A DNA stretch of 64,000 nt. It comes from an uncultured archaeon. Lineage in GTDB: Archaea > Asgardarchaeota > Lokiarchaeia > Sigyniarchaeales > SOKP01. How positions within the stretch are numbered: position 1 is the first letter of the stretch; each line of letters opens with the position of its first letter. The translations under genes were made by a program, and so were the position numbers. Positions 4,655-39,800 of the stretch are shown piece after piece. The DNA is taken from positions 40,807-104,806 of the forward strand of contig CAZGJX010000001.1 in assembly GCA_964525635.1 (NCBI GenBank), given 5' to 3'. The notes under the pieces were generated by a model. It saw only the letters and a program-made list of their open reading frames with translations. It did not search any database and had not been told where the DNA came from.

Positions 4655-5040
4655 TTACATTTGTTCTATAATTGCTCTCAACATATCTTCTCCACATGCT
4701 CCCACCATTTTTCCATTTTGTATATGATTTTGACCATTTACTTCTATATTTTTTTCTATTAATTCCCCATCTTTGAAAAACAACAGGGTTGGGATTGCGT
4801 GTATATTAAACATATTACCCAATGGTCTATTTTGATCTAAATCAACTTGTATTATATTTATTAATCCTTCATCTCTTAGCTTATGTAAAATTGGTGTGAT
4901 GAACTTTCATGATGATTTATCTAATTATTAAATCATTTGCATGGTCCGCACCAAACAGTATAAATATCTATGATAAGCTTTCCTTTTTTCATTTCCTCTG
5001 TAACTGGAATGTTCACATCTTTTAATTTATCGATATTCAT
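4655..5040 (-). CDS. trx: Thioredoxin, interrupted by a 32-nt BHB-type insert (117 aa if spliced; pseudogene if not)
   Basis: Not in the ORF track because it is split. Exon 1 (5040..4938) reads MNIDKLKDVNIPVTEEMKKGKLIIDIYTVWCGPCK then TGA. Exon 2 (4905..4655, a different frame) reads (K)FITPILHKLRDEG...IHAIPTLLFFKDGE...-stop. The join gives the canonical WCGPCKxIxPxL. Confidence 0.8.
4906..4937 (-). other. Candidate bulge-helix-bulge (BHB) intron in the thioredoxin mRNA, 32 nt
   Basis: RNA fold drawn by eye. Outer helix GGAC/GUUC, central helix CAUG/CAUG, 3-nt bulges CAA and AAA, inner 8-bp helix AUGAUUUA/UAAAUCAU (4912..4919 / 4929..4936 on +) with a 9-nt loop. Canonical cuts excise 32 nt and restore the frame. 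Confidence 0.65.
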
Positions 5041-5431
5041 TTGTTCTCATCTTATATTAAATATTTTATTTAAATATCTTTTTTAAGATTTTCTCTTATT
5101 AAGTTTTTAAGATATATTTACATTAAGTAAATTGTAATATTTATTTTTTATATTTTAAATATAAATCAAAAAGATATTAATACAATAAAATTTATGTTAA
5201 ATTCTAGCTAAATTGTTTAAATTGATTTAAGAATAAATCATTTAATTTCTATCAATTAAATTGATATTTCTTAAAATATTTTAATTGGTGATTAAACAGT
5301 ATATTTAAGTTAATATCTATATTCTATTTTTATTTCTTAAATAAGGAAATAATTAGAATAAAATTTAAATTCTATGAAGAGAAATTTAAAATAATCTATA
5401 GTAGTTAAATAAATTAATAATATATTTTGTT

Positions 5432-5938
5432 ATGTTAACAATAGATTTTGATTTTCGAAACCAAATCATTCAGTCTGATATTGGAAAAACATTGGTATAT
5501 TGTTACCAATGTGCTACTTGTTCTGGAGCCTGTCCAGTAGCACAAGTAACTAATGGACGCTATAATCCAAGAAGACTAATTTTAACATCATTATTAGGTT
5601 TAAAAGAAAAGATATTTGGTGCTGAAAATTCTTTTGAGATTTGGGGGTGTACAGTGTGTGATACATGCGATGAACTATGTCCACAAAAAGTTGAACTTAC
5701 AGAAATATTTACAATACTTAAGAATATCAGCGTAGAGCGAGGAGAGGCTCCCGATCATTATACTATGCAGGCATCAACTATATTGGAAAATGGTAAAGCA
5801 ATTCCAATGCAGAGTGCCATAGAAAGGAGAAGAGAACAATTAGGATTGCCTAAAATTGTAAATCCAGATATTAATGAGGTAAAAAAGCTTTTAAAAGCTA
5901 CTGAATTAGAAAAAAAAATCCCTAAACAAGAAAAATAA
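5432..5938 (+). CDS. Heterodisulfide reductase subunit C-like 4Fe-4S protein (HdrC family)
   Basis: 168 aa with two ferredoxin-type motifs, CYQCATCSGACP and CTVCDTCDELCP, at HdrC-like spacing. No hdrA or hdrB is nearby. Confidence 0.6.
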   Translation: MLTIDFDFRNQIIQSDIGKTLVYCYQCATCSGACPVAQVTNGRYNPRRLILTSLLGLKEKIFGAENSFEIWGCTVCDTCDELCPQKVELTEIFTILKNISVERGEAPDHYTMQASTILENGKAIPMQSAIERRREQLGLPKIVNPDINEVKKLLKATELEKKIPKQEK

Positions 5939-6090
5939 GGTTTTCCTTCTTTAGTTTATTTTTTTTTTATTAGTACCTATAAATCTATCAAAGATGGAGA
6001 AAGTGATGTTTGATTTTTACAAAATTTTTTAGATTTATATTAATTTTCAAAGATCAATTTTAGAATTATTTTGTTTTAGAGGTATCAAAT

Positions 6091-6858
6091 TTGAGAAGAA
6101 TACCAATTATTGGTGGAAATTGGAAGATGCATCGAGGTACTCCTGAAGATGCTAAAGAAATGTTAGAAGAATTTATACAATTAGTTAAAGATATTGAAAA
6201 TGTTGAAATAGTCATTGTCCCCCCATATACTGCATTATCTGTGGTAAACGTCGTAAAGAACACTAATATAAAAATTGGTGCTCAAAACATGTATTATGAG
6301 GATAAAGGGGCTTTTACAGGTGAGATATCACCTAGGTTTTTGAAGGCACTTGGATGTGAATATGTAATTCTTGGTCATAGTGAAAGAAGAGACATTTTTA
6401 AGGAAGATGATGATCTAATAAATAAAAAATTAAAAAAAGCTTTATTGATGGAATTAAATCCTATTGTATGTATTGGTGAGCATTTAGAAGAAAGAGAAGC
6501 AGGGAAAACAAAAGATGTAATTCGAACACAGATTGAAGGAACATTTAAAGATTTAACAAAAGAACAGATGATTAAAATAGTTATTGCTTATGAACCTATA
6601 TGGGCAATAGGTACAGGAAAAACAGCAACTCCTGATCAAGCAGATGAAGTTCATCAATATATTCGAGATCTCCTAAATGAAAAATATGATAATGAAACTG
6701 CAGAATTAGTAAGAATTCAATATGGAGGATCTGTTAAACCAACTAATGCTCTAGAGCTTTTCCAAAAGAGCAATATAGATGGTGGTTTAGTAGGAGGTGC
6801 CTCCTTAAATGCAGATTCTTTTTCAGAAATAATAAAAGCTGCTGAAAATTCAAATTAA
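6091..6858 (+). CDS. tpiA: Triosephosphate isomerase, long bacterial/eukaryotic-type
   Basis: 255 aa, TTG start. Contains IIGGNWKMH, ILGHSERR, AYEPIWAIGTGKTAT and YGGSVKP, which are hallmark TIM motifs. Confidence 0.9.
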   Translation: MRRIPIIGGNWKMHRGTPEDAKEMLEEFIQLVKDIENVEIVIVPPYTALSVVNVVKNTNIKIGAQNMYYEDKGAFTGEISPRFLKALGCEYVILGHSERRDIFKEDDDLINKKLKKALLMELNPIVCIGEHLEEREAGKTKDVIRTQIEGTFKDLTKEQMIKIVIAYEPIWAIGTGKTATPDQADEVHQYIRDLLNEKYDNETAELVRIQYGGSVKPTNALELFQKSNIDGGLVGGASLNADSFSEIIKAAENSN

Positions 6859-7082
6859 ATTACATTTCTTATTTTATTTTATTAAATTTCTAATATTAAT
6901 CATTTATTTATCATAAATATTAACACTATTTTCAAATTATTTAAATAATTTTTAAAAAAACAAAATAAAATAAACATACGAAAAATATAGTTTTGTAATC
7001 ATTTTTATTAATATTTTTTATAAAATTTCAATGAACTATTGAAGCAATGTTCTTTTATATATAAAAAAAATATAATATATTA

Positions 7083-7958
7083 ATGACAATTTATGAGCTT
7101 AATATAATATCTACAACTGGTTTTCCCTACTATAATAAAATTTTAAAACCTATTCCAAAAGGAGTAAATGTTTTTTTAAGATTTTTTGATTTTTCTAAAG
7201 ATAATAGAGAAGATTTACCAAATGACGAAGCTGATTTAATGTTCGATTTAAAAGCAGGATTAATTTCCGCCCTGTTTGAATTCGCTCGTAATATTGATAA
7301 AAAAATAAAAATTTTAGAATTTAAACCCAAACCTTCGGTGGATTATAATTCAAAAACAAAGGAAAATGAAATAAAAATAGAAGGAGACGTTTTAATAACG
7401 GTTACAACAGAATCTTATCTTCTACATAATCAAATTCGTAAAAAAATAAATCTAATATATAATGATTTTATAACGTCTATAATTCCTTTAGACTCTGCAT
7501 ATGAGATTCCTAATGTTGAAGAGAATAATCTAATTGATTTATTAGTTGATATGAAAGCTAAAAACCATATAAATCATAAAAAGAAAGAGCTTAGTAATAA
7601 TGCTAAAAAGCTTCTTAATGAAATGGATCAATATGGCTTAAGAGGAATCGTTTGTACAAGTTTTGATTTAAGCCCAATTATTTGTTTTTCAAAAGAAAAT
7701 AGATATTCCTTACAGGATATAGACATTATTCTTAGAAATATTGGAAATATACCAGATATAGAACCATATGAATGGAAATATAGACAATCGATTTATAACA
7801 GTAAACCAATATGGGTTTTTATAATTAATAGTGGGGTGGGGGTGACTATCAAAGGTCTTTTTGAACCTTATTACTATCTATTATTAGCAGAACCTAATTC
7901 TTATATAGGGGAGTTTCCAAAAAAATTAACCTCCGAATTTAACCAAATATTAGGTTAG
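7083..7958 (+). CDS. Hypothetical protein
   Basis: 291-aa ORF with no competing ORF apart from a short antisense one. I recognise no family motif. Confidence 0.5.
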   Translation: MTIYELNIISTTGFPYYNKILKPIPKGVNVFLRFFDFSKDNREDLPNDEADLMFDLKAGLISALFEFARNIDKKIKILEFKPKPSVDYNSKTKENEIKIEGDVLITVTTESYLLHNQIRKKINLIYNDFITSIIPLDSAYEIPNVEENNLIDLLVDMKAKNHINHKKKELSNNAKKLLNEMDQYGLRGIVCTSFDLSPIICFSKENRYSLQDIDIILRNIGNIPDIEPYEWKYRQSIYNSKPIWVFIINSGVGVTIKGLFEPYYYLLLAEPNSYIGEFPKKLTSEFNQILG

Positions 7959-8037
7959 ATATTTATAATATCATTTTATTATATTGTATCGATAAATATT
8001 ACCTTTAAAATAAAAAGACATAAAGTTACAATAAAAT

Positions 8038-10830
8038 TTATTTTATAACTATACTTGGTCTTCCAGGTAGAGCCTGATTAGCTTTATTTTCCTTTGTTTC
8101 CTTCTCAAATAAAATTTCCACTTGACAATCATATTTTTTTCGAATAATAAATTTAATATCTTCAAAGAAATTAAATTCTTCATCTTGAGATAAAGAAAAC
8201 TTCGAGAATTTTCCTATATTTTTCAATATTTTATTTACAGTTTGACTAATGAATTTCCCATGTGGTTTCAGATTAGAATCTTTCATAATTTGAGTCATTA
8301 TTTCTCCCTGATTTATTGTTTTCTGCATTAGTTTAAATAATTGAGAGTAAAATGTATATTTCCATTTATCAGCAATTATGATCAATATTTTTTCTAAAGA
8401 ATCTTTTTTTACAACATGTTTAATATTATTAATATCATCTAAAGTACTATCCAATAAATTCCATTTAAATTCGTTTTCTTCTGTTAGAACATGCTCGTTA
8501 CATTCTATCCAAGGGGCTATACTCAAATAATCTTTATTCCCCATAATTTCCCAAACTTCTTCTGTCATATGAGGAGCAATTGGATGTAATAAAATAAGTA
8601 GTGTTTTAATACACTGATTATATACATCTTCAAAAATTCCTTCATTTTTATATTTAATAATTTCTGAAGTAAATTCAATGATATTATTAACAGCATCTCT
8701 AATAGCTAATTTATTCATTTGTTCTAAAGTTTCCTTAATGATTTTATTCATATAATAATTCATTAAAAGATCTCTAACATTTTTATTATTTCTTTTCATT
8801 TTTGGAGGATTTGCTAAGAGAGAGAAAGTATTTCGTATAAATTTTGATGCAAAACCAATTCCCTCTTCAGAGAATTCCAATCCAGACTCTGGACTAGCAC
8901 CAAATAATACAAAAAACCTAGCAGAATCAGCCCCGTACTTGTTTATAATTTCATCTGGATTTACAGTGTTACCATAGCTTTTACTCATCTTTACACTTCT
9001 TATGATATATTTTGTCCCACAAAATTTACATGTTTCATCATCCATTTCTGATTTCATTGCAAATCTATTACAATTTAAACAATAAGGATGGGATTTATTA
9101 ATCATTCCTTGTGTTAACAATCTTTGAAATGGTTCATCAAACTTATGTAATCCCAAGTCTCGAGAAACTTTTGTAAAGAATCTTGCATATATTAAATGCA
9201 TTACAGCATGTTCGACGCCACCAATATATTGATCCACATTTCCCCAATAATTTACGATATCTTTTCTATATGGAATATCTAAATTATGATAAGGAGGATC
9301 ACAAAAAGCAAAGAAATACCAAGAACTATCAATAAATGTATCCATTGTGTCAGTTTCACGTTTAGCTGGCTTTCCACATTTGGGACAGTTGGTATTTATA
9401 AATTTTTCACTAGTTTTTAATGGATTTCCTGATCCCGTAAAAATCACATCTTTTGGTAATAATACGGGTAATTCTTCAAAAGTCACAGGTACAGTACCAC
9501 ATTTTTCACAATAAATAATAGGGATGGGACATCCCCAATAACGTTGACGAGATATCCCCCAGTCTCTTAATTTATAATTGATCGTAGGATATCCTTTTCC
9601 TATTTTTTCTAATTTCTCGGTAATTGCTTTAATAGCATTACGATTTTCTAAACCATTGAATTCAACAGAATTTACAAGCACTCCATCACCTTCAAAAGCT
9701 CTATTCATTTTTTCAGCATTTATTTCATATTCATGAGGTTGGATTACAACTTTTATTGGAATATCATATTCTTTAGCAAATTCAAAGTCACGTTGATCGT
9801 GTGCAGGAACAGCCATTACTGCTCCAGCACCATATTCGTAAACTATAAAATTACCAATATATACAGGAATTTTTTCATTGGTCATAGGATTTATACAGTA
9901 TTTTCCAATAAACATCCCTTTTTTCTCTACTTCAATATCTGTTCTTTTAAACTTGTCTTCTTTCATAATTTCATTATATAATTTTTCAAATGGTTTTTCA
10001 TACTCAGTACCTTTTATCCATTCATGAATCCATGGATGTTCTGGAGCAAAAATCATAAATGTGACTCCAAAGAGAGTATCTGGACGTGTTGTAAAAATAT
10101 CAATTGTTTTATCCATTCCAATTATTGGAAATTTAATTATTGTTCCTACACTTCTTCCAATCCAATTTTTTTGCATTATTTTTACTTTTTCAGGCCAATC
10201 AACTGTTTCTAATCCATCTAATAATTCTTCAGCATAATCTCTTATTTTTAAGAACCATTGAGTGAGAAATTTTTGCTCAACTTCAGTATTACATCTCCAA
10301 CATTTTCCTCCTTGAGCTTGTTCATTAGCTAAAACAGTTTTACATTTTATACACCAATTTACATAACTCTTTTGTCTATAAGCAAGCCCTTTTTCATACA
10401 TTTTAAGAAAAAAATATTGATCAAATTTATAATAATTTGGATCATGACTATAGATTTCTCTTTTCCAATCATACGATAATCCTATTCTTTTTTGTTGTTC
10501 TTTCATGAAAGATATATTTGAATCAGTCCATTCTTCAGGTTTAATATTTTTATCGATTGCAGCATTTTCTGCTGGCATTCCAAAAGAATCATAGCCCATA
10601 GGATATAGTACATTAAACCCATTCATTCTTTTATATCTAGCATAACAATCACCAATTGTATAATTTCTTAAATGTCCCATGTGGAGTTTTCCAGAAGGAT
10701 ATGGATACATTTCAAGAATATAATATTTCTTTTTCTTTTTATCAACTTCAACTTCAAAAATTTTATCCTCTTCCCACTTTTTTTGCCATTTTTGTTCTAC
10801 TGTATGGGGATCATATTCAGAATCTATCAT
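8038..10830 (-). CDS. leuS: Leucyl-tRNA synthetase (archaeal/eukaryotic type)
   Basis: 930 aa with PYPSGKLHMGHLRNY (HIGH motif), KMSKSYGN (KMSKS motif), the CP1 editing insertion and Zn-binding Cys pairs. Confidence 0.95.
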   Translation of the reverse strand: MIDSEYDPHTVEQKWQKKWEEDKIFEVEVDKKKKKYYILEMYPYPSGKLHMGHLRNYTIGDCYARYKRMNGFNVLYPMGYDSFGMPAENAAIDKNIKPEEWTDSNISFMKEQQKRIGLSYDWKREIYSHDPNYYKFDQYFFLKMYEKGLAYRQKSYVNWCIKCKTVLANEQAQGGKCWRCNTEVEQKFLTQWFLKIRDYAEELLDGLETVDWPEKVKIMQKNWIGRSVGTIIKFPIIGMDKTIDIFTTRPDTLFGVTFMIFAPEHPWIHEWIKGTEYEKPFEKLYNEIMKEDKFKRTDIEVEKKGMFIGKYCINPMTNEKIPVYIGNFIVYEYGAGAVMAVPAHDQRDFEFAKEYDIPIKVVIQPHEYEINAEKMNRAFEGDGVLVNSVEFNGLENRNAIKAITEKLEKIGKGYPTINYKLRDWGISRQRYWGCPIPIIYCEKCGTVPVTFEELPVLLPKDVIFTGSGNPLKTSEKFINTNCPKCGKPAKRETDTMDTFIDSSWYFFAFCDPPYHNLDIPYRKDIVNYWGNVDQYIGGVEHAVMHLIYARFFTKVSRDLGLHKFDEPFQRLLTQGMINKSHPYCLNCNRFAMKSEMDDETCKFCGTKYIIRSVKMSKSYGNTVNPDEIINKYGADSARFFVLFGASPESGLEFSEEGIGFASKFIRNTFSLLANPPKMKRNNKNVRDLLMNYYMNKIIKETLEQMNKLAIRDAVNNIIEFTSEIIKYKNEGIFEDVYNQCIKTLLILLHPIAPHMTEEVWEIMGNKDYLSIAPWIECNEHVLTEENEFKWNLLDSTLDDINNIKHVVKKDSLEKILIIIADKWKYTFYSQLFKLMQKTINQGEIMTQIMKDSNLKPHGKFISQTVNKILKNIGKFSKFSLSQDEEFNFFEDIKFIIRKKYDCQVEILFEKETKENKANQALPGRPSIVIK

Positions 10831-11112
10831 TTGTTAAGAAAAATATGTTTATAATTTACCTAAATAGATAAAATATTTATTAAAAAAATATGGAGTGGAA
10901 TAAATTATTTTCGATATAGGAGTCTATCTGAAAGGATAAAGGAAATTACAAATAAGTATAATTCATAATTTATTTTTTTATAGCAATAATATATTAGAAT
11001 TATAAATTTTTTAAAACTTTCTTCAAATCTATAATAATGGAAATTTATATTGTTATTATATTAATTTAACACTCTCTTAATTTTTTTTAGATATATTCTA
11101 ATTTTTATAATT

Positions 11113-11586
11113 ATGTCGGAAGATTATGAAATCACACGATTTTTAACTTCTAAAAATAATAATAAAAAACCAAAAATAGATAATTATAATACTTTAAAAG
11201 AATATAACAATGAATTATATACAGGAATGAAAATAGGTGGTAAACATTATTGGAATTATGATAATGGAAAATGGATTGAAATTAAAAAATCCCCAAATAA
11301 ATGGAATTTTACGTTTAATTCCATTAAAACAAGAAATCATCTTGCTCCAATAAATACAGGTGCAAATGTTCACACAAAATACCATTGGTATATTATAGCA
11401 GAGCAATTCGCTGAGAAAATTAATGCTAATTCTTACATGACAACTATGAAAGGAGAGAAATTTAAAATAGGACATAAAAGACTATATTGGAGAACATTTA
11501 ATTATAGATATCCAGATCAAAAACCATATAAAGAGCGATTAATTGAAATTTTAGAAGGAATTTTATATAATTTAAAATCCGGATAA
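11113..11586 (+). CDS. Hypothetical protein
   Basis: 157-aa Trp/Tyr/Lys-rich ORF with no recognisable motif. Confidence 0.4.
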   Translation: MSEDYEITRFLTSKNNNKKPKIDNYNTLKEYNNELYTGMKIGGKHYWNYDNGKWIEIKKSPNKWNFTFNSIKTRNHLAPINTGANVHTKYHWYIIAEQFAEKINANSYMTTMKGEKFKIGHKRLYWRTFNYRYPDQKPYKERLIEILEGILYNLKSG

Positions 11587-12195
11587 AAATGGATAAAATA
11601 TGCAAATGGGTTCTTCAATAGTTCTAAAATGTAAATAAATTTGAATAATTTTAATATAATTTCTCCTATCTCTCTTATATTTTCTATATCTATGTTTTAA
11701 CTACAATTTCTTCATATCTACATACTAAAGTAGAAATTTTTCATTCTCTATTATAGTTTTAAAAAGAATTTTCTATTTCTTATAGATAAAATCATAATAT
11801 AGGTGTATTATAAGAGAGAATAAGAAAATGTAAACACACATCCAATAGAACATGTATAAAAAATAAAAGAGGATATCCCTCAATTGGGAAAAATTACTCC
11901 TATTTCAGGAGTAAAAGAGAAATTGGGAAGAAATTTCAATTCATAATTCATTGGTGCGATAAAAACAAAACAAAATCGATGTTTCTGGAGTATTCTAGAA
12001 GATAATGACTTTGAACTCTATCAGAATGTAGCGAGTCCCGTTCCCGCTAAAAGGTGATTGATGATAATAAGGTAGGGAGAGCTCTGTGAGTTCAATGAAC
12101 ACTTATTTGAGATGCAAGTTAAAGTGATAAAAGATATGAATTTATATCATTTTTATCTATTTGACAGAACGGAAAATTGGTTGATGAATAAATAA

Positions 12196-13284
12196 TTATA
12201 TTTTCCTTCTATCCCAAATTTTTTTTATCATTATTGCTTTTTTAAAGTATCCTTCAATAGTATCCACTGTATCACTAAAATCATGCATTTTTTTTGCTTT
12301 TTCACAAGCACTTTTAACTAATTTCTTTTTATAAATTAAATCATCTAAGATTTTTTTTATTCCTTGAATAAAATCATTTACATCATTCGCTTTATAAGCA
12401 GAAATATTATGTTCCAACCAATTAAATACTTCAATATCCCTTGCTATAACAGGTAATTTACATAAAGATGCTTCAATTAGGGGAAGGCATAGATTTTCTT
12501 CATCTGATGTATTTAACAAGATATCTGCACCGTAATAAGGTTCTCTAATGTCATCATAATATCCTGTAAAAAAAACATTATTTAATTTCGATGCTTTCTC
12601 TACTTCTGGATTATCACTTGTTGGTCCTACCCATATAAAATAATAGTTAGGGAGTTTTTCAGCTACTTGACGAAATGTATCAACTCGTTTTCTTTTCCAT
12701 GTTAATCCAACATTCAAAATAATAGTCGCATCTATTGGGATTTTGTATTTTTCATTAAGATATTGCCGGAATTTTATTCTATACTCCTTTTTCTCCGTGA
12801 ATTTTTCAATTATAATTCCACTACTAACTGACCATATTGGATATGTCCTTGATTTCTGTATTCCTTCAATGCACGTCTTTGCATAATCGCTTGGAGTCAT
12901 TAATAAATGAGCTTGGCTATATAAGAGTCTGACCCATAATTTTATAATTTTATTAATAATTGGAATATCTGGTAATAAATTTCCTTTCAAATCTTCATAT
13001 GTTGTATGAGCATGTTGAACAACAGCAATTGTTTTTTTAAATTGATTTTTAAACCTATATAATTGAAGAAAAGTAAGAGGATCAAAACTTGAGGAACAAA
13101 TTATATCCACATTACCTTCTTCGACCCATTTTGGCTTTTTTTGTCTATTGGGAATCCATAAATTATGACCCCTATTTTTTAGTTCTTGAATAATATCTTC
13201 AGTAGTTACCTCTATTCCTCCAATTGTATCTAGTTTCTTGAATTTTTTATAAATATGAAAGTTAACAATATAAATGATATTCAT
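12196..13284 (-). CDS. Glycosyltransferase family 4
   Basis: 362 aa, GT-B layout. The C-terminal half has ILNVGLTWKRKRVD...FIWVGP...FTGYY...ADILLNTSDEENLCLPLIEASLCKLPVIA, an EX7E-like region. Confidence 0.7.
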   Translation of the reverse strand: MNIIYIVNFHIYKKFKKLDTIGGIEVTTEDIIQELKNRGHNLWIPNRQKKPKWVEEGNVDIICSSSFDPLTFLQLYRFKNQFKKTIAVVQHAHTTYEDLKGNLLPDIPIINKIIKLWVRLLYSQAHLLMTPSDYAKTCIEGIQKSRTYPIWSVSSGIIIEKFTEKKEYRIKFRQYLNEKYKIPIDATIILNVGLTWKRKRVDTFRQVAEKLPNYYFIWVGPTSDNPEVEKASKLNNVFFTGYYDDIREPYYGADILLNTSDEENLCLPLIEASLCKLPVIARDIEVFNWLEHNISAYKANDVNDFIQGIKKILDDLIYKKKLVKSACEKAKKMHDFSDTVDTIEGYFKKAIMIKKIWDRRKI

Positions 13285-21455: not shown

Positions 21456-22467
21456 TTAAATTGGAACTGGAATTTCCTCCATAATATTTTTTATAACAGC
21501 TCTGACGTCAAGACCTTCTAATTCTGCTTCTGGTTTTAATAACAGACGATGATTCAATGCAGGGACAGTTAATGCTCTTACATCATCAGGAGTTACATAA
21601 GTTCTTCCTAAGATCGCAGCTCTTGCCTTAGAGCATTTCATTAGTACTAAACTTGCTCTAGGACCACATCCTAATCCAATTTGAGGATGGTTTCTTGTTT
21701 TAAGAATTATATCTCTAATATATTTTAGAATTCTCTCATCGATATATACTTGATTTACCAAATTCTGAGCAGCAAGTATTTCTGGTCCACTAGTGATACG
21801 TTGGACAGTTGGTGAGTCTCCAGACAATTGTCGTCTCATGATTTCAACTTCTTCATCATGTTCTGGATAATCCAGCCATAATTTAAACAAAAATCTATCA
21901 ACCTGAGCTTCAGGTAATGGATAAGTCCCTTCCATCTCTACAGGATTCTCTGTTGCTATTACCATAAATGGTTTTTCGAGTTCCAAGGTTTGACCTTCTA
22001 TTGTAATTTGCCGTTCAGCCATGGCTTCAAGGAGTGCTGCTTGTGTTTTAGGAGCACTTCTATTAATTTCATCCGCTAATACGATGTTTGCAAATAAAGG
22101 TCCTTTTTGAAGCACGAATGTTCCTTCTTCTTGTGAGAATATTTTTGTACCGGTAATATCTGCCGGAAGAAGATCTGGTGTGAATTGTACTCGTTTAAAA
22201 CTTACACCTAAAGTATTTGCAAATGTTTTAGCCATTACTGTTTTACCTAGTCCCGGAACGCCTTTTAACCAAATAATTCGAATTGAATTAAATTTCTAGT
22301 AAGACGTGTCCGTTGACAAGTAAGGATACAAATAATTGCTGAAGAATTTCTCCACATCCCACAATAACTCTACTTACCTCTGAGAGTACCTCCTGAGCAA
22401 TTTCTCTTATGGGGGTAATATCTAACTCGCTATGAGAAGCTGTTTTTATTTTACTTGGTGTTGACAT
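21456..22467 (-). CDS. MoxR-family AAA+ ATPase, interrupted by a 31-nt BHB-like insert just before Walker A (326 aa if spliced)
   Basis: The track ORF 21456..22235 lacks the N-terminus. Exon 1 (22467..22296) reads MSTPSK...[25 protein letters not shown]. After the insert comes [15 protein letters not shown]..., then [28 protein letters not shown]. Confidence 0.8.
22265..22295 (-). other. Candidate relaxed BHB intron in the MoxR mRNA, 31 nt
   Basis: Fold drawn by eye. 6-bp outer helix ACGUCU/AGGCGU, central helix UACU/GGUU (A-U, C-G, U-G plus one U-U), 3-nt bulges AGA and AAA, inner hairpin UAAUUC-AAUUC-GAAUUA. Canonical cuts excise 31 nt and give CUA-GAA-GGC (L-E-G). Confidence 0.5.
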
Positions 22468-31432: not shown

Positions 31433-32521
31433 TTAAAAACAATGCCAAAATGAGGATAAATTAGATTTGAGTGTTGGAATTAATTTTCCATTTATATAAT
31501 TTAACAAGTCTTTATCCGAATTTCTTGGGCTCTCTTCAATAAGATTCTTATCATCATTATTTAATACTCTTAAACAATTATATACTGCTCTTGTTTGTTT
31601 ATCTATTTCATACCCTCCTTCTAGAGTTAGTAAAATTCTATCTTTAGCATATTCATGAGCTATTTCTTTTATTTTTTTTAAATAATTCGCTGGTCCATGA
31701 TAAGTCCAACCCATATTCGTAAGTCTATCTGTCCAATGTGTATCAAACCCCGCAGATATAAGTATAAATTCTGGTTTAAATTCTTGGCAAATAGGAGCTA
31801 TAATTTCATTAAAAAATATTATATTAACATCGTCACCTGCTTTTGGAGGCATTGGAAAATTTATTATTGTTCCTTCTCCTTTTTTATTTCCAATATCATT
31901 AATAAATCCAGTTCCAGGATAGAGTGTCCTCCCATCCTGATGAGAATCAAAAAAGACAATTTTTCCATTTTCAGAACCATCATAAAAAATGTCAGATGTT
32001 CCATTTCCAGCATGACAATCCCAATCAATAATTGCTACTCTATTAATTCCTTTTTCCCGAAATAAATACTCTGCAGCTATCGCTATATTATTAAAAATAC
32101 AAAATCCAGAACATTTATATGAATTTGAATGATGTCCAGGGGGTCTTACAAGAGCAAAACAATTCTTTATATCTCCAGATATAATTTTATCAATTCCTTC
32201 TAAATTTCCACCAACAGAAAATAATGATGCTTCATAGGTTTTTGCAGAAATAGAAGTATCCATATCAAGACTTTGTATATGACCTGTTGAACCCGCTATT
32301 TCACTTAATTTCTTTATTTCTTCAATTAAATGTTCTGTATGAACATATTTGATTTGATCAAGTGTCGCCTGTCTTGGTTTTATTATTCTAAATTCAGAGT
32401 GATCCCAAATATGATTTTCTTCTAAGAAATGTTTTATAGCTATTAACCGTTCATGTGATTCGACATGAAGCCCTATACGATGTTCTAAATATATATCATC
32501 ATAAACAATACCAGTTGTCAT
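31433..32521 (-). CDS. Histone deacetylase-family (class II HDAC / acetoin utilisation AcuC-like) deacetylase
   Basis: 362 aa containing RPPGHHS, IIDWDCHAGNGT, SAGFDTH and LEGGY. Confidence 0.85.
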   Translation of the reverse strand: MTTGIVYDDIYLEHRIGLHVESHERLIAIKHFLEENHIWDHSEFRIIKPRQATLDQIKYVHTEHLIEEIKKLSEIAGSTGHIQSLDMDTSISAKTYEASLFSVGGNLEGIDKIISGDIKNCFALVRPPGHHSNSYKCSGFCIFNNIAIAAEYLFREKGINRVAIIDWDCHAGNGTSDIFYDGSENGKIVFFDSHQDGRTLYPGTGFINDIGNKKGEGTIINFPMPPKAGDDVNIIFFNEIIAPICQEFKPEFILISAGFDTHWTDRLTNMGWTYHGPANYLKKIKEIAHEYAKDRILLTLEGGYEIDKQTRAVYNCLRVLNNDDKNLIEESPRNSDKDLLNYINGKLIPTLKSNLSSFWHCF

Positions 32522-32648
32522 AAAAATATTCTCTTATATTGATCAACTAATCCAAATTACTTTTTTATTAAGGATTTAATTATTTTTATATTTATACGTT
32601 TTTTTTATTATTTAGAATAAATATAATTATGAATTCAGTAAAAATAAT

Positions 32649-33179
32649 ATGAGTGAAAAAGAGGATTTTAAGTTAAAAATTATTGTAATTGGTCAACCAG
32701 CCGTTGGGAAGACTAGCTTAGTTAGAAAATTTGTTTCCGGGGAATTTAATAAAGATTATCGAAGTACAATTGGTACAAATATCTATATAAAAGATGTTGT
32801 TTTAGAGGATGGTCGTAAAGTTATTCTTAATATATGGGATATTGCAGGACAGGAAAGATGGATTAGAATGAGAAATAGATATTATAATGGAACGCAGGGT
32901 GCTGTTATTGTAGGAGATTTATCAAGAAAAAGAACTTTTGAAAATATTGAAAAATTTTGGTACCCTGATTTAAAAGTACATAATCTTTTAATTCCAATAA
33001 TATTAATTGGAAATAAACATGATCTCGAAGCTGAAATCTCCAATCAAGAAGTTGAAGATTTAAAGAGAAGAATAAAGGCGGAATTATTTATAACCACTTC
33101 AGCAAAAACTGGAGAAAATGTAAATGAAATCTTCCAAAAATTATCAAAAAAAATATTAGATGCTATCAATAACAAATAA
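32649..33179 (+). CDS. Ras-superfamily small GTPase, Rab/Ras-like
   Basis: 176 aa with G1 GQPAVGKTS, G2 YRSTIG, G3 WDIAGQERW, G4 GNKHDL and G5 TSAKTG. There is no C-terminal Cys prenylation motif (the protein ends DAINNK). Confidence 0.85.
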   Translation: MSEKEDFKLKIIVIGQPAVGKTSLVRKFVSGEFNKDYRSTIGTNIYIKDVVLEDGRKVILNIWDIAGQERWIRMRNRYYNGTQGAVIVGDLSRKRTFENIEKFWYPDLKVHNLLIPIILIGNKHDLEAEISNQEVEDLKRRIKAELFITTSAKTGENVNEIFQKLSKKILDAINNK

Positions 33180-33296
33180 AATGTTTAATGATTTATTACG
33201 AGAGAAACAAATATTTATTTATTATCTTAACCAAAATCTCATTATATCTTTATTATTTTATTATTATTAATTAAATTTTAAGTAAATGATATTAAA

Positions 33297-34004
33297 ATGG
33301 AAGTTAGAAACGAAGAGCATATAAAAGGTGGGGAAAAAATTCGAAGTTTTATTTTGGGATTTAATGATGGCCTCATTTCTACTTTCACATTATTGGTTGG
33401 AGTAGCTGCTGCCACATTAGCTTCAGGAAATAATGCAATAATAATTCTTACAGGTGTGGCAGCAATGGTTTCTGGTGCAACCAGTATGGGTTTGGGAGAA
33501 TACATTTCATCAAAAAGTGAAGCAAAATATATTAAAAATGAATTGAGAAGAGAAAAAGCAGAAATAAAATTATTTCCAGAAGAAGAAAAACAAGAAGTAA
33601 AAGAAATTTTGCAAACATGGGGTTTTGATGGTGATTTACTTGAGAGAGGAGTTAGGAAAATAATATCTAATGAAGATATTTGGTTAGATTTTCTAATAAA
33701 GGAGGAATTAGGGTTAGAAGAACCAGAAAATCCATTAATTGGGGGAGGGCTTACCTTTTTTGCTTTTATATGTGGTGCAATAACAACACTTTTTCCATAT
33801 TTTTTAAAATTAGGAATGGTCTCTTTAATTTTATCTTCCATAATTTCCTTTGTAATGTTATTCAGTGTTGGTGCTGCAAAAACAAAGATTACAGGAGAAA
33901 AAGCAATAAAAAGTGCTATAGAAATGGTAATAGTGGGAATTATTGCATTTTTAGTTTCTTATTTTGTTGGTTTATGGCTTGAGCAAATTATACCTGCTTT
34001 ATAG
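33297..34004 (+). CDS. VIT1/CCC1-family iron/manganese transporter
   Basis: 235 aa with GFNDGLISTFTLLVGVAAA and GLGEYISSKSE, a cytoplasmic metal-binding helical insert, and 5 TM helices. Confidence 0.75.
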   Translation: MEVRNEEHIKGGEKIRSFILGFNDGLISTFTLLVGVAAATLASGNNAIIILTGVAAMVSGATSMGLGEYISSKSEAKYIKNELRREKAEIKLFPEEEKQEVKEILQTWGFDGDLLERGVRKIISNEDIWLDFLIKEELGLEEPENPLIGGGLTFFAFICGAITTLFPYFLKLGMVSLILSSIISFVMLFSVGAAKTKITGEKAIKSAIEMVIVGIIAFLVSYFVGLWLEQIIPAL

Positions 34005-34081
34005 AATTTAGAATGTGGTCAAAACCTGACAAATTGGAAAATATATAACTTTTATTATTTGTAAGAAAAGTGCGTATTCTA

Positions 34082-34651
34082 TTAGATAATCTCCTTAAAA
34101 AATGTCTGATTATGATCACATATTGGACATTTTTCTGGAAGATTGCCAAATTCAATATTTCCACAAATTTGACACACATAAATTCTTTTTGATTTAATAG
34201 ATTGCCCTTTTTTTAATAATTTCAAATATAAAGAGAAAAGTTTTGCATGAATCCTTTCAGCGTCTCTTGCTAATGAAAATGATAGTTCAGCTATATAATT
34301 ACCTTGACTAATCGCGTTTTTTTTGAATTTTTTATACATTACTTTTGTCTCATACAGTTCACCATTAATTGCATTTTGTAAGTTGGAGAGTGTATCTTTC
34401 ACCTTATTTTTTAACATTTCTTGATCAGGTATCCCTATTTCTTTAAAGTTATTTGTAGAATTAGTAATAACAGATAGAGCTTTAAAATGGTTCTTTATAT
34501 GAATGCTTTCTGCAAATGATGTAGCTCTAAAAAGATGTGCGACTTCATTTAAACTCTCTTTTATAGCATTCTCAGAAAATAATTCATATTTTATTTTAGC
34601 ATTATTTTCTCCATTAATTGCTTCCTTTAAATTATCTATAACTATGGACAT
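34082..34651 (-). CDS. rbr: Rubrerythrin
   Basis: 189 aa. A ferritin-like four-helix bundle with E...ExxH pairs (FAESIH, DAERIH) plus a C-terminal rubredoxin-like CQICG...CPICD. Confidence 0.85.
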   Translation of the reverse strand: MSIVIDNLKEAINGENNAKIKYELFSENAIKESLNEVAHLFRATSFAESIHIKNHFKALSVITNSTNNFKEIGIPDQEMLKNKVKDTLSNLQNAINGELYETKVMYKKFKKNAISQGNYIAELSFSLARDAERIHAKLFSLYLKLLKKGQSIKSKRIYVCQICGNIEFGNLPEKCPICDHNQTFFKEII

Positions 34652-34706
34652 TTTAATTACTTAAAGTTTAGATTTTTTATATTTGCTTAAGTTGGTAATT
34701 CAATAT

Positions 34707-36794
34707 TTAATCCTTATTATTGATTAATTTATCAGCAGTAATAAAATTTAAACTTTTATTATATAACTTTCTGGTATTATGATAATTATCTTTAAAAGTT
34801 ATTTTTTCATAAAGTTTTTTATCTAATTCTTCAATAAAGCGAGAGATTTTTAAACAATTATATTTTTTGTATGTATTAGATTCTTCAGGGGTTATTAAAA
34901 ATAATTCATCTTTTGCTCGAGTTAAGGCCACATAAAAAATTCTTCTCTCTTCTTCTAATTTATATTGATCAGTAATATTTCCGACTGAGGGAAATAGGTT
35001 TTCTGAAAGTGATATAATAAACACAAATTTCCATTCAAGGCCTTTAGCTCTATGTATAGTAGATAAGACAACATGATCATTTAATTCTGCATCTTTATTA
35101 GTAGAGATATTTTTAATTTCATTGGTTCTTAAATTCAAATCATCTAATAATTCTTTAATTGTTGAAAATTCTTCATAAATTTCCTTCAATGTATTTATAT
35201 CTTTTAATCTTTTTTCTGAATTATTATAATTCTTTACAAGGTAATCTTTAATAAATTTCATAGTTTGATTAAAAATCTCAATGGGAATTGATTTAGAACT
35301 GAGATTCTTGAAATACTCAACAAATTCAGATACATTTTCAATTGACTTTTTATTTAATCTTATATTGCTTAAATTTTGAGGGGTCAATTCATATGAGAAA
35401 ATAGATTCTCTTAAATTTTCTTCTGATATAATTTTTTGAATAATTTTCTCTGCATTTACTTTCCCCAATCCAGGAATAATCGCAAAAATTCTTCTCCAAG
35501 CTAATTCATCATGATGATTTAGAATGATTTTAGAGAATGCAATGATATCTTTTATATGAGATTGCTCAAAAAAAGAAATTCCTGAACGAATTATAAAAGG
35601 TATTTTATGAGATTGAAGTTGTTTCTGTAAAGTCAATGAATGAAAATTTGAACGATATAAAATTGAAATATCTGAATATGAGAATCCTCTTTTTCTAACT
35701 TCTTCAATTTTTTCAATAATAAAATTTGCTTGCTCAAGATCATTAATAACTGTTATATGTATTGGTTTCTTTTGATTTCTTCGAGTTGACATCATTTTTT
35801 TTGAGAATTGGATTTTATTATTAAATATTGAATTATTAGCTAAATCTAGAATTTCAGATGTTGATCGATAATTATGAGTCAATTTATATTTTTTCATATT
35901 AGGAAACCATTTTCCAAAATTTAAAAGATTTCTAAAATTAGCTCCACGGAATCCATAAATACTCTGAGCATCATCTCCTACGACCATAATATTTTTATTA
36001 ATATGAGCTATTTTATAAATTATCTGAGCTTGTAAATAATTAGTATCTTGATATTCATCAACCAAAATATACTTTATTTTTTCTGCAATATTTTGAGCTA
36101 TTTCTTTTGTATTGAGTAATTTATTCCAGATAACAAGAAGATCATTAAAATCCACAAAGTTATTATATCTTTTTCTTGATTCGTATTTCTTTGATATCTC
36201 TTTTAAAATATTGATATATTCACCCTTTGCATAGTAAGGATAGTTCTCTTTTAAGATTGTTATTATCGATTTATTTCTATTAATTGCATTTGATAAAATT
36301 TTAAAACATAATTTAGGAGAGGGTACATCTTCTAAGATTTTATTTGTATAATTTTCATCAATTAGTAATTTAATTAAAGATAGAGAATCAGATTGGTCAA
36401 TTATGGAATAAGCTGGTTTTAAACCTGCTTGTTGAGTATAAATTCTAATAAATCTATTAGCTAGAGAATGAAAAGTCCCGCCCCATAAACCCTTTAGTTC
36501 ATAACCTAATAAGGCTTCAACTCTTTTTAACATTTCATCAGTTGCTTTATTTGTAAAGGTGACTAACATTATCTCAGAAGGTTTTATTCCATCACTTATT
36601 AATTTCGCTACACTGTAAGTGATTACCCTTGTTTTTCCTGATCCTGCTCCTGCAATAACAATCATAGGACCTATGATGTTATTAACTATTACTAGTTGTT
36701 CCTTATTTAAATTAGACTCAAAGAATTCATTATTAAAAAATCTTTTAGATTTATCCCCTTTTGGCTCCTGTAGGTTTTTTAAAAACTTTTCCAT
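34707..36794 (-). CDS. UvrD/PcrA/Rep-type SF1 DNA helicase
   Basis: 695 aa containing AGAGSGKTRV (Walker A), VDEYQDTN, VGDDAQSIYGFRGA, TIHRAKGLEW and YVALTRAK. It starts 8 nt after the mcm stop on the same strand. Confidence 0.9.
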   Translation of the reverse strand: MEKFLKNLQEPKGDKSKRFFNNEFFESNLNKEQLVIVNNIIGPMIVIAGAGSGKTRVITYSVAKLISDGIKPSEIMLVTFTNKATDEMLKRVEALLGYELKGLWGGTFHSLANRFIRIYTQQAGLKPAYSIIDQSDSLSLIKLLIDENYTNKILEDVPSPKLCFKILSNAINRNKSIITILKENYPYYAKGEYINILKEISKKYESRKRYNNFVDFNDLLVIWNKLLNTKEIAQNIAEKIKYILVDEYQDTNYLQAQIIYKIAHINKNIMVVGDDAQSIYGFRGANFRNLLNFGKWFPNMKKYKLTHNYRSTSEILDLANNSIFNNKIQFSKKMMSTRRNQKKPIHITVINDLEQANFIIEKIEEVRKRGFSYSDISILYRSNFHSLTLQKQLQSHKIPFIIRSGISFFEQSHIKDIIAFSKIILNHHDELAWRRIFAIIPGLGKVNAEKIIQKIISEENLRESIFSYELTPQNLSNIRLNKKSIENVSEFVEYFKNLSSKSIPIEIFNQTMKFIKDYLVKNYNNSEKRLKDINTLKEIYEEFSTIKELLDDLNLRTNEIKNISTNKDAELNDHVVLSTIHRAKGLEWKFVFIISLSENLFPSVGNITDQYKLEEERRIFYVALTRAKDELFLITPEESNTYKKYNCLKISRFIEELDKKLYEKITFKDNYHNTRKLYNKSLNFITADKLINNKD

Positions 36795-36801
36795 ATAGAT
36801 C

Positions 36802-39800
36802 TTATAAATCTTTACTTGTAAATTTTATATATCCAGTTCTTGGTTCATATAATATCCCTTGAGTAATTAAATCATCAATAGCTTTTTTTATATAATCGCC
36901 TTCCAATCCTTCTTCAAGATAAAGGATTTGAGCCACTGATTTTCTTTCAAGCATCTTCCAGTCATTTTCCTCAAATACTTCCTTAAGCCTGGTTAAAAGT
37001 TTATCAAATTTATTTAATTTACTTCTTGATTCTCCAACAAAAATCCTATCCACATCAATTTTTCCAGTAGTTTCATCATATCCTGTATCTCTTAGATATC
37101 GCTTAAATAATTTAATAATTTCTATAACATCTTCTTTAAGAACTTTTTCTCTTAAAGCCATTTTAGCATGTGCTTCACTTAATCGGACGAGTGCATCTAA
37201 ATTTCTCGCTAAAATTGAAATGATTGCATCTTCACTACTATATTCTCCTCGCAGTTCTAAATAGAAATCTTTTATATATTTTTTTGCTTCTTTTGTTAAA
37301 GTTGGTTTACAGGTTCTTTTTGCATGCTTAATATATTTTTTTAACAATTCACCTGAAATTGGAGCAAAATTTTCTTCTTTTTCACTAAAATTTTCATTAT
37401 CAGAATCTATCATTGCGCTTTGGAGGATAAATTCTGCCATTTGAGCATCATCAGCTTTATTTGGCCGATCAACAACAACAAATATTAGATCAAATCTAGA
37501 TAATAATGAAGGGGGTAATCTTATATTTTGTGTTGGTGTTTTATATATATCATATCTTCCAGAATGTGGATTTGCGGCGGCTATAACGGCAGTCTCGGCT
37601 TTTAATGTTGCTACTATTCCTGCCTTTGCTATACTTATAGTCTGTTGTTCCATCGCCTCATGCAGGGCAGATCTATCAGCTGTACTCATTTTATCAAATT
37701 CATCGATGGCCGCAACACCTCCATTTGCTAAGACTATTGCTCCTGCTTCCAAATTCATCTGACCTGTATCTGTATCTTTGATTACCGCAGCCGTCAATCC
37801 CACAGCGCTTGCGCCCTTTCCACTAGTGTATAAACCTCTAGGAGATATATCTACTGATGATTTTAATATTTCGCTATTATGAACAATTAGATTTCCATTA
37901 GCTACAATAAAGTGATGATCCTTAGTTCCAATATCATAAACATAAGTTTTTCTTTTTATTATATCAATTTTATCTATTTCATCCCATAATATATCCGATT
38001 CTGATAAAAGTTTTAACCATTTTAGATCATTGTTATATTCCTTATCTCTTTCATTATAAAGAAGTTCTAGCTTTTTTATTACTTTTCTTAAATATTGTCG
38101 TCCTACTCTTTGTCTTTGTGTTTTAACACGAAGTTCTGCACTAAATTTCCGTAACCATGTTCCTCTACGATTAAAATTTCCTAATTCTCTAATTATATTC
38201 TGCAATATATCTCCAAAGTTTGGAATTATATCTTTTTTTTGGTATCTCGAAGTTTGAGATGCTAATTCTATAGATTTTTCTAGTTTAATTTTTTTTTCTT
38301 TTATTAGAAATCCTATTATCTTATAATATTTAATAGTCTCTTCTCCTGTTAGAATTATCGTATGATATAAATTCCCTTTATAGATTCCAGATTTTATTTC
38401 TTTAATTCCTATTGTTGCAAAAATTCCAAAAGAACATAACATATCTGATAGATTATAAGCTAAATCTTTGCTAGCTGTACTAGCTTCTATATATAACATA
38501 TTCTTTTCAATATAACTATCTCCAGTAAAATAAGCGGATAATAATCCCCGACGAAATGTTTCTGGTGTAAATAAGATTTTTGATGAAATTTTTTTGAATT
38601 TAGCATGATTTCCAAAAAATTTTTTAATCCATTTCATAAAAACTTCATTATGAATTTGAATTGTATTATCATAATTATAGATAGATACTTTATTGAAAAT
38701 GGACTTGATATCTTTTTGAAGTATTTTAACAACATCTGGATTTGTATTTGTAATTCTAACAGAATTTTGACTAATATCTCCTTCAGCAATATAAAAACCG
38801 ATTATTCTGCCAAATTCTTCATTAAGGGTTATGTTGTGTGGGATCCAATTATTATTTCTTTTTTTTCTTATCCAATCACCACTAGGGATAACATTAGGTT
38901 CTTTTTTATATAGTAATAATGTTGATTTTCCTATATTTGAGACTATTGCTGCATTTTTAAGAGATACTATCCCTTTGTTATATAATGATAGCTGTTCTTT
39001 TATCTTAAGACTACTTTGACAATCTTTTTTATTAATAAATGGAGACATATCAGCTTTATGATAATTAACTTCACATCTTAAATTCCTTGCTACAGGTAAG
39101 TAATACCTTTTTTTATTTTTTGAGAGTCTATTTGAATTTTTAATTTCACATAATTGATTTGCATCAATTAATTCTAATTTACCATTTATTAAAGTTGTAA
39201 AGGAGTGGTTTGGAGTAGCTATAATTTTACGCCCATTTTTTGTATTTATTTTAATAAGAATATTCGTCATATGACGACTAATTTCATTTATTTGAGATAT
39301 TTGAGTTTTAAAATTATTAAAATTAATAGAATAAGTATATTGTTTAGGTGAATTTTCTAATTTTAGAACTTCTGAATCTCCTTTTAAAATTATTTTAGAA
39401 GGATTTTGATTCATTAATTCATCAATGAAATCACTTATCTTTGTTAGATCCCAAATTTTTCCATTATTAATTTCTGTTCCTATATAAATTTTTTCTGATC
39501 CATGAATACTCTTTCCAGTCCCGGGATCACCTACAAATAAAACATGGATATCCCCTCTTTTATAGTTGCCTCCTATTTTTTTTTTTCTTGTTCCGGCAAA
39601 TAAAGTTAATGCACATGCCATTTTTAGATCATTTCTTCCATAAATCGTTGGTGCGATTGAACGAGTAATTTTTCTTTGAATGAATGGTTCTTTTGCGAGT
39701 TTTTCAATCTCTTTTTTCTCTTCTTTAGTTATATCGATTTGTTCTTCACTTTTATCTTCCGGATCTATATAATTCACATCTATAAATGTCTTGAATAAAG

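Follow-up and report, generated by a model that had tools for sequence, protein, structure and literature searches.

Probable short bulge-helix-bulge-type introns in conserved codons of protein genes of a Lokiarchaeal genome, beside an intein in MCM

Three interrupted genes in the window

The window, that is, the whole 64,000-nt stretch of Lokiarchaeal DNA analysed, carries three genes on the minus strand that are interrupted by additional sequence: those encoding a thioredoxin (Trx) and a MoxR ATPase (AAA_3), both of which look essential, and MCM. The first-pass annotation placed all three interrupting elements on codons of catalytic motifs, which holds for Trx, where the insert comes one residue past the second Cys, as well as for MCM, where it lies inside the P-loop, whereas the insert in MoxR sits one residue ahead of the first Gly in Walker A.

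Exon 1 of Trx (5040..4938, minus) encodes MNIDKL...TVWCGPC and ends on the first A of a Lys codon; exon 2 (4905..4655, minus) supplies the AG of this codon and continues with FITPILHKL... up to the stop. Between them is a 32-nt insert (4937..4906, minus), A-ATGATTTA-ATAATTAGA-TAAATCAT-CATG-AA, with an in-frame TGA near its start, after 1 codon. Once the insert is removed, exon 2 reads AG-TTC, that is, K-FITPIL, and the Pfam Thioredoxin profile spans the junction in the spliced product. The MoxR gene is organized in the same manner, with exon 1 (22467..22296, minus) encoding MSTPSK...NGHVLL and the G of a Glu codon, a 31-nt insert (22295..22265, minus; AAATTTAATTCAATTCGAATTATTTGGTTAA) with an in-frame TAA after 2 codons, and exon 2 (22264..21456, minus) contributing the AA of the Glu codon followed by GVPGLGKT... 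up to the stop. Without the insert, exon 2 reads AA-GGC..., that is, E-GVPGLGKT, and the spliced product matches the AAA_3 and bpMoxR profiles across the junction. Both inserts were accordingly recovered where they had been proposed, at WCGPCK in Trx, with the cut inside the Lys codon, and before GVPGLGKT in MoxR, with frame-restoring cuts, and both contain the in-frame stops reported for them.

The MCM open reading frame, intein included, extends over 40578..36802 (minus). The N-extein (40578..39511, minus) comprises MCM_N, MCM_OB and the start of the P-loop domain and ends with GDPGTGK; the 545-aa intein (39510..37876, minus) begins with Ser1 (SIHG...), contains a LAGLIDADG homing-endonuclease domain and ends with ...IVHN; and the C-extein (37875..36802, minus) starts at Ser+1 (SEILKSS...) and contains the remaining ATPase domain and the lid. 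The insert matches Pfam Intein_splicing (3.9e-19), with LAGLIDADG_3 (PF14528; 4.9e-15, residues 675-756) nested within it, and its ends, Ser1 of SIHG and ...VHN|S, are those of Hint splicing blocks, so the suggested intein splitting GDPGTGK/S is borne out. MCM is the most intein-rich archaeal protein, all MCM inteins reside in conserved ATPase motifs, and the archaeal MCM 'a' intein, with a LAGLIDADG endonuclease, occupies the P-loop site GDPGxGK|S (Novikova et al. 2016, PMC4760082). By site description, rather than by alignment to catalogued inteins, the present intein is located at this insertion point a; it shares site and type with the published ones and differs in host lineage and in its Ser1 nucleophile. 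It is an ordinary, classical protein-level mobile element, separate from the short introns.

Bulge-helix-bulge anatomy of the thioredoxin and MoxR inserts

Exactly at the frame-restoring cuts, both short inserts conform to the bulge-helix-bulge (BHB) geometry of archaeal introns. The Trx intron forms a strict hBHBh' motif with 3-4-3 geometry. On the minus strand, exon 1 provides one side of the outer helix (GGAC, 4947..4944) and of the central helix (CATG, 4943..4940), followed by the bulge bases CA (4939..4938); the inner hairpin of the intron spans 4936..4912, the central-helix return strand is CATG at 4911..4908, and the outer-helix return strand, GTTC (4904..4901), lies in exon 2. The central helix is completely paired (CATG/CATG, 4/4), the bulges are CA|A and AA|A, and h and h' consist of 4 and 8 bp, respectively. 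In MoxR, where exon 1 contributes the outer helix ACGTCT (22307..22302, minus) and the central helix TACT (22301..22298, minus), the motif is imperfect in this genome. Its central helix is paired at 3/4 positions (TACT/GGTT, one T.T mismatch), the canonical register leaves only 2 contiguous pairs to the inner helix, the minimum-free-energy fold slips by 2 nt, and the 5' side is less well formed. In the other three genomes belonging to the same genus (g1), the MoxR intron is 30 nt long and has a perfect central helix (TACT/GGTA, 4/4).

Comparison with relatives further shows that dozens of intron-less orthologues have an empty site precisely where each insert lies, and that each junction is continuous in 27-28 homologues. 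The exact empty site is CTAG|AAGG for MoxR and TGCA|AGTT for Trx, the latter present in 3 aligned intron-less orthologues. Outside g1, the Trx gene is uninterrupted. Within the class, about 140 of 151 genomes have MoxR as an unbroken gene of 978 nt, and the insert is found only in g1 (4/4 genomes) and in one additional genome, G080, which carries a homologous 32-nt intron. The inner helices show two double changes in each intron, in a small sample of 4-5 sequences: ATGAT/ATCAT vs GTGTT/AACAC among the four g1 genomes for Trx, and, with G080 included, TAATTC/GAATTA vs AAACTC/GAGTTT for MoxR. The bulge bases differ freely. Geometry at the cuts, empty sites and compensatory inner-helix changes together support the BHB-intron interpretation already suggested by the annotation; group I and group II introns, with a ribozyme core, usually an ORF and a length of hundreds of bases, do not match inserts of 31-32 nt.

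Given these observations, we consider it probable that the two inserts are BHB introns removed from mRNA, with their location in motif codons reflecting a survival filter. In the transcript, exon flanks and insert would together form two bulges of 3 nt each with a 4-bp helix between them; EndA, the tRNA-splicing endonuclease, would cut after the second base of each bulge; and RtcB would join the exons, restoring WCGPCKF in Trx and the frame of the Walker-A region in MoxR. Both enzymes are encoded in the genome, EndA as two paralogues (PF01974 matches at C18 and C105) and the RtcB ligase by a PF01139 match at C119. If the inserts instead stayed in the RNA, the genes would be pseudogenes, or their products would be made in two pieces or through ribosomal bypassing or frameshifting. 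Simple nonsense codons do exist in other genes of this genome, and splicing here is deduced from sequence, but this scenario appears highly improbable. The inserts are kept in all four g1 genomes with compensatory helix changes, and the host proteins otherwise stay intact among these genomes, at 91-93% identity for MoxR and 71-74% for Trx exon 2. Neither exon 2 begins with a start codon, and bypassing is ruled out by the take-off and landing codons at both inserts, which give the wrong frame. Moreover, 14 genes are interrupted in this way (see below), among them those for RpoB, aIF2-gamma and CTP synthase, and they cannot all have lost their function.

A genome-wide set of introns and its position bias

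In a genome-wide scan combined with Pfam and empty-site checks, at least 14 protein genes proved to carry an intron of 29-32 nt, so Trx and MoxR are not the only two cases. The other hosts are aIF2-gamma, RNase HII, CTP synthase (PyrG), a small GTPase, a CinA-like protein, RpoB, POR-gamma, AMP phosphorylase, a ThiF-like protein, Csp, Elf1 and S27ae. The central helix is paired at 4/4 positions in 11 of the 14 introns and at 3/4 in the remaining three, and the outer helix has just 0-1 bp in 6 of the 14. The homology checks were indispensable: the chance background of BHB-like candidates equals that of a control in which the 3' cut was shifted by 1-2 nt, so the scan alone proves nothing. This background consists of adjacent genes, the Pfam matches of which end exactly at the supposed junction, and no filter applied to the BHB candidates, whether based on open frames, on codon or dicodon scores, on a six-frame test or on missing start codons, ever raised them above the control. 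For aIF2-gamma, some loci of which were misjudged by the junction classifier, a separate per-locus table was used instead.

Several candidates were rejected. Longer ones, of 37-70 nt with good energies, are not introns: the one on C152 is a TAT-to-TAA point change, that at C1:114701 looks like a frameshift relative to genome G098, and the C103/C139 candidate is without a continuous homologue. Three in-frame candidates, located in genes for a methyltransferase, a caspase-domain protein and a beta-helix protein, are plain nonsense codons. Two more, one in another thioredoxin gene (C174) and one in an MvhD-like gene (C87), are probably cases of TGA read as selenocysteine.

Throughout the set, the first stop lies 0-8 codons past the 5' cut, and unspliced mRNA would yield only short peptides. 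The introns could be kept as a putative post-transcriptional switch that makes host expression dependent on EndA and RtcB, an option that is compatible with BHB splicing and adds a function to it. RtcB-dependent unconventional splicing is indeed regulatory in eukaryotes, where a short, frame-changing intron (26 nt in XBP1) of XBP1/HAC1 mRNA is cut non-spliceosomally at stem-loops by IRE1 and the exons are joined by RtcB. XBP1/HAC1 splicing, however, involves another nuclease (IRE1) and another recognition motif, is regulatory and concerns a single gene. We regard the switch as very unlikely: the host genes share no common function, close relatives do without the introns, and the in-frame stops are partly expected because the sequence is 80% A+T, a composition that yields a stop within 10 codons with probability 0.65, and because the scan demanded a broken frame.

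The suggested enrichment of the inserts at conserved positions was tested using ranks within each protein. Junction windows are more conserved than average (Fisher p=0.003, 8 genes), falling within the top 20% of conserved windows in 7 of the 8 genes, with RpoB (percentile 0.65) not especially conserved. The intron flanks are G+C-rich (Fisher p=8e-6), and Gly accounts for 18.5% of flanking residues vs 6.8% in the background (p=1.6e-5). Conservation and G+C are themselves correlated (rho 0.2-0.6), and tests conditional on one or the other gave mixed results.

A part of this association could be due to ascertainment, with introns elsewhere unseen or taken for indels. The initial observation, made from sequence alone, could rest only on recognised motifs; in the census, too, some motifs were recognised by eye, and four introns were first picked by motif continuity. 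Validation depended on alignments, to Pfam or to orthologues, that cross the junction. Because an intron enters the census only if it breaks the frame and homology can be recognised on either side of it, the census favours conserved proteins and regions, and in-frame inserts without stops are invisible to it. As the main cause of the motif association, however, such an artefact is unlikely, given that the within-protein rank tests, which are conditional on detection, still yield p=0.003 and p=8e-6, that all 301 windows of the first census were submitted to Pfam whatever their appearance, and that the cbf5 intron of Crenarchaeota likewise disrupts a catalytic-residue codon (PMC2738675).

The siting in motif codons most likely reflects a filter on surviving insertions, not homing. 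The coding sequence must supply the exon side of the BHB, and, the genome having just 27% G+C, stable helices would be possible mainly in the local G+C-rich patches that conserved loops (P-loop, GxGxxG, CGPC, DEAGRG) provide through their Gly, Pro, Ala, Cys and Arg codons; because these codons are under purifying selection, the splice site would then be preserved. The bias towards conserved, G+C-rich, Gly-rich codons parallels that of inteins, and may here be explicable, at least partly, by the needs of the splice site.

Recent gains and likeness to known introns

Most of the introns are restricted to g1, which implies recent gains and speaks against the retention of ancient introns, one of the options raised in the annotation. 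The aIF2-gamma, RNase HII and AMP phosphorylase introns have a patchy presence in other genera. At least one site, that in the GTPase, holds unrelated inserts in two genera, the g1 intron and a 34-nt insert in genome G025, and comparable convergence on the same regions was observed for Trx and MoxR: the Trx gene of G053 contains a 30-nt insert 6 codons upstream of the present site, which does not fit a canonical BHB fold, and the MoxR gene of G080 carries a second, perfect BHB intron at QFTP^DLLP. If few sites per gene qualify under the filter, independent gains would be expected to converge on the same places.

The recent gains, the patchy presence and the GTPase site hit twice, along with the narrow length band of 29-32 nt, are those elements of the proposed mobility that stand, and could indicate a family, mobile at present or in the past, that spreads into conserved targets by reverse splicing or homing-like copying. 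The copy-and-paste component of this proposal did not hold. Similarity between introns is not above that of shuffles (45 pairs; maximum z 2.9, mean 0.5), which also disposes of the common A-rich, AUUUAAU-like start claimed for the Trx and MoxR inserts, and a blastn-short search of the genome for repeated intron copies returned only A+T-rich, low-complexity chance matches. With neither a common sequence nor a repeat family, homing-like copying is unsupported; inserts of about 30 nt are also too short to encode an endonuclease, and the 3' end of each intron pairs with its own exon, a tailoring that would not be expected of a copied element. In Asgard archaea, tRNA introns are abundant and repeatedly gained, with many recent lineage-specific gains and likewise no detectable copying route (bioRxiv, doi 10.64898/2026.10.13.758758). 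A mobile family thus seems unlikely. The introns described here resemble those tRNA introns in clade, BHB motif and lack of a detectable copying route, and differ in residing in protein-coding genes, which in that preprint serve only as neighbours for locus matching. The tRNA introns of the present genome (8-61 nt, ARAGORN) span a much wider length range than those of its protein genes.

A bolder possibility, which we consider rather unlikely, is that one Lokiarchaeal genus is at present gaining introns de novo in a burst across its protein genes, with insertion aimed at a small number of proto-splice-like sites within conserved, Gly-rich motif codons and the same position independently struck across lineages. 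Such a burst would call for insertion to be directed, for example through reverse splicing by EndA/RtcB and subsequent retro-integration, and would amount to a prokaryotic parallel to intron gain, found in those archaea that are most closely related to eukaryotes.

In the accessible literature, archaeal pre-mRNA splicing by the tRNA machinery is confirmed for cbf5 alone, the BHB intron of which was experimentally shown to be spliced in Crenarchaeota (Watanabe 2002; Yokobori 2009, PMC2738675). Whereas cbf5 is a single gene of hyperthermophiles, here at least 14 genes are interrupted in one mesophile-like Asgard genome, by introns that are mostly recent genus-level gains of tightly 29-32 nt and the splicing of which we infer. 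In a genome from the archaeal group closest to eukaryotes, such a set would show that protein-gene introns can accumulate quickly in archaea, affecting RpoB, aIF2-gamma, CTP synthase, thioredoxin and a MoxR ATPase. It would also mean that standard gene callers mis-annotate essential genes in such lineages, and that close genomes differing by single introns offer natural before/after pairs for studying intron origin.

Two introns and an intein at motif codons

In the window (27% G+C, on contig C1 of a 4.45-Mb assembly in 245 contigs), the thioredoxin (Trx), MoxR and MCM genes are each interrupted by an element at motif codons, all on the minus strand, as the first-pass annotation had observed and as exon reading, Pfam matches to the spliced products and intein domains confirm. 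The MCM frame carries Intein_splicing and LAGLIDADG_3 domains (Pfam) between GDPGTGK and SEILKSS, in an intein at 39510..37876 that starts at Ser1 and ends ...VHN|S. MCM is the archaeal protein richest in inteins, and this element is already known in kind, because the P-loop contains the insertion point published as "a" (PMC4760082).

The first Trx exon (MNIDKL...TVWCGPCK) runs into TGA at the insert (4937..4906), and the frame restarts 32 nt on as (K)FITPILHKL; the predicted spliced product matches Pfam Thioredoxin end to end (3e-18). In MoxR (insert at 22295..22265), exon 1 ends ...NGHVLLE followed by I and a stop, and the frame restarts 31 nt on as GVPGLGKT, giving a spliced product with an end-to-end match to AAA_3 (1e-64). 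Both inserts thus contain the in-frame stops ascribed to them.

As the template for bulge-helix-bulge (BHB) geometry, we used tRNA introns, in which the 4-nt central helix (H) leads, on each strand, into a bulge of 3 nt, with the cut between the second and third bulge bases. The Trx insert fits strictly, with outer helix (h) GGAC/GTTC, H CATG/CATG, bulges CA|A and AA|A, and an inner helix (h') of 8 bp; its minimum-free-energy fold is exactly this structure, and the predicted cuts would yield TGC-AAG-TTC after joining. The MoxR fit is less clean: at the frame-restoring cuts H is TACT/GGTT with one T.T mismatch, h has 6 bp, h' retains just 2 contiguous pairs, and the minimum-free-energy fold adopts a register shifted by 2 nt from this one.

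At the level of sequence, comparison with relatives settles the identity of both inserts as BHB introns. The Trx insert is found in all four genomes of the window's genus (g1), always 32 nt long and precisely between TGCA and AGTT; in the relatives compared outside g1, the gene is continuous. Within g1, the exons are intact (71-74% protein identity for exon 2), h' differs by two compensatory pairs (ATGAT/ATCAT vs GTGTT/AACAC), H is unchanged, and A, T or G occupies the middle of the 3' bulge. MoxR is a continuous 978-nt gene in ~140 of the 151 genomes of the class, among which the insert is limited to g1 (31 nt in G000, the window's genome; 30 nt in G003, G023 and G036) and G080, a relative outside g1 (32 nt), aligned precisely between CTAG and AAGG of intron-less genes. 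H is perfect (TACT/GGTA) in all three 30-nt versions, the exons are intact, with 91-93% protein identity within g1, and the G080 intron is homologous to that of G000, with two compensatory pair changes in h' (AAACTC/GAGTTT vs TAATTC/GAATTA). G000 also encodes the splicing enzymes, namely the ligase RtcB and two paralogues of the endonuclease EndA, ~200 aa each (C18:18795-19022 and C105:10281-10529). The initial reading of both short inserts as BHB elements stands on this geometry, the empty sites, the compensatory changes and the enzyme genes. Two separate EndA paralogues suggest a two-subunit endonuclease, a type that accepts relaxed BHB motifs.

Census and distribution of protein-gene introns

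We scanned the entire G000 genome for 3-4-3 geometry with frame restoration, using a 3' cut shifted by 1-2 nt as the control. Statistical filters alone never exceeded this control in the genome-wide scan; the background consisted of adjacent gene pairs, not introns, with Pfam matches stopping at the supposed junction. The candidates passing homology and empty-site checks amount to 14 introns of 29-32 nt, so that the two in the window are not the only cases; this number is a lower bound, in-frame introns free of stops and introns with poorer motifs or in proteins without recognisable relatives being invisible to the scan. The junctions are PC^KF (Trx), LL^EGVPGLGKT (MoxR), GHVDHG^KT (aIF2-gamma), DEAG^RG (RNase HII), DFGT^YERF (CTP synthase, PyrG), I^FDFGGQ (small GTPase), SGGL^GPTFDD (CinA-like), VVPD^IPGF (RpoB), CPQ^C (Elf1), HYD^RWACGAC (S27ae), GSE^MHGLAQ (POR-gamma-like), DKHS^TGGV (AMP phosphorylase-like), VGVGAL^GCE (ThiF-like) and GWVK^WFDYKKGFGFI (cold-shock protein, Csp). 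H pairs at 4/4 positions in 11 introns and at 3/4 in three; six introns have only a weak outer helix (0-1 bp), which, we think, fits the relaxed motifs of two-subunit endonucleases.

The PyrG, CinA-like, RpoB, POR-gamma and ThiF introns occur only in g1 (24-30 genomes searched per gene), and that of Csp was seen in G000 alone, the g1 relatives giving no Csp match. The 30-nt RNase HII insert is present in 13 of the 21 other genomes searched in family f1 and in none outside this family, the aIF2-gamma intron is patchily present over several genera, and the extra 30 nt in AMP phosphorylase also appear in G007 and G009, outside g1. Restriction to g1 in most genes, with continuous orthologues elsewhere, upholds the proposal that the inserts are gained elements.

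Several sites or their vicinity are filled more than once. Among the 12 genomes searched in genus g4, one (G025) also has an insert in the GTPase gene; it is 34 nt long (about 1470-1505, minus strand, of a locus on C84) and lies at the g1 position (GGxATAT|TTGA), with unrelated sequence and hairpin, which suggests, from sequence comparison, independent gain at one position. Trx of G053 (genus g6) carries a different 30-nt insert, TAATCTGAGAGAATTTCTCGCTCAGACGGG (1750-1785, minus strand, of a locus on C6), immediately upstream of WCGPC, six codons upstream of the g1 site and on the opposite side of the motif; a canonical BHB fit to it was attempted and none obtained. MoxR of G080 has a second 30-nt intron, at QFTP^DLLPADI (about 350-380 of locus C55:14100-14500), with a perfect BHB (CACC/GGUG, bulges AG|U and AG|A, h' 9 bp) and a fold z of -5.8. 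We conclude that most of these protein-gene introns are young and that the same regions have been struck repeatedly.

Positional bias and the origin of the introns

The preference for conserved sites proposed from the window holds for eight genes taken together, compared in query-anchored alignments of 19-32 homologues each (Fisher p=0.003). In each protein, the 6-7 residues round the junction were ranked among all of its windows, and the fraction of windows at least as conserved was 0.02 for aIF2-gamma, 0.04 for RNase HII, 0.07 for CinA-like, 0.13 for the GTPase, 0.14 for Trx and PyrG, 0.19 for MoxR (already at the ceiling of 1.0) and 0.65 for RpoB. Compared with the remainder of their gene, the 24 nt of exon round the junction are also rich in G+C (median percentile 0.076; 8/14 in the top 10%; Fisher p=8e-6), and Gly makes up 18.5% of junction-flanking residues vs 6.8% overall (p=1.6e-5). 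Conservation correlates with G+C (rho 0.2-0.6), and tests of either one conditioned on the other gave mixed results. The cbf5 intron, which likewise interrupts a catalytic-residue codon, parallels this preference (PMC2738675).

The introns are 67-90% A+T, and the 3' end of each is complementary to its own upstream exon. Homing-like copying and shared ancestry, both raised in the first-pass annotation, find no support: intron-intron similarity never rose above shuffles, and no intron has related copies elsewhere in the G000 genome. According to a recent preprint, a copying route is likewise lacking for Asgard tRNA introns (doi 10.64898/2026.10.13.758758). Because of these observations and the tailoring of the 3' end to its own exon, we favour a survival filter, whereby an insertion would be kept only where the coding sequence can provide one half of the splice motif in a form that is stable and held constant by selection; such a filter would account for convergence on shared sites. 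Targeted insertion is a possible alternative. In each of the 14 introns, the upstream frame meets a stop after 0-8 codons. From composition alone, the probability of a stop within 10 codons is 0.65, and the stops are partly built into this set, since the scan demanded a broken frame.

Other interrupted reading frames

A second Trx paralogue of G000, outside the window (C174:4332-4667), reads ...DW-TGA-GP.CK..., with TGA replacing the first active-site Cys codon, and is probably, judging by this pattern, a selenocysteine (UGPC) thioredoxin rather than an intron-bearing gene. Two 30-nt candidates in an MvhD-like gene of G000 (C87, minus strand, strand positions ~8772 and ~8909), at expected CxxC-type motifs, were rejected as false; this gene probably has TGA codons for selenocysteine. 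The MoxR orthologue of G029 (g6; C26:5436-6388) is broken near residue 142. Four G000 genes are intact except for a single in-frame nonsense codon each: those encoding a methyltransferase, a caspase-domain protein, a beta-helix protein and a protein of roughly 200 aa (C192 ~2298, C87 ~14190, C96 ~8981 and C152:5740-6060). Compared with five orthologues, the C152 gene has TAA in place of TAT. Pseudogenes, variation within the population and errors of assembly are possible explanations for the four.
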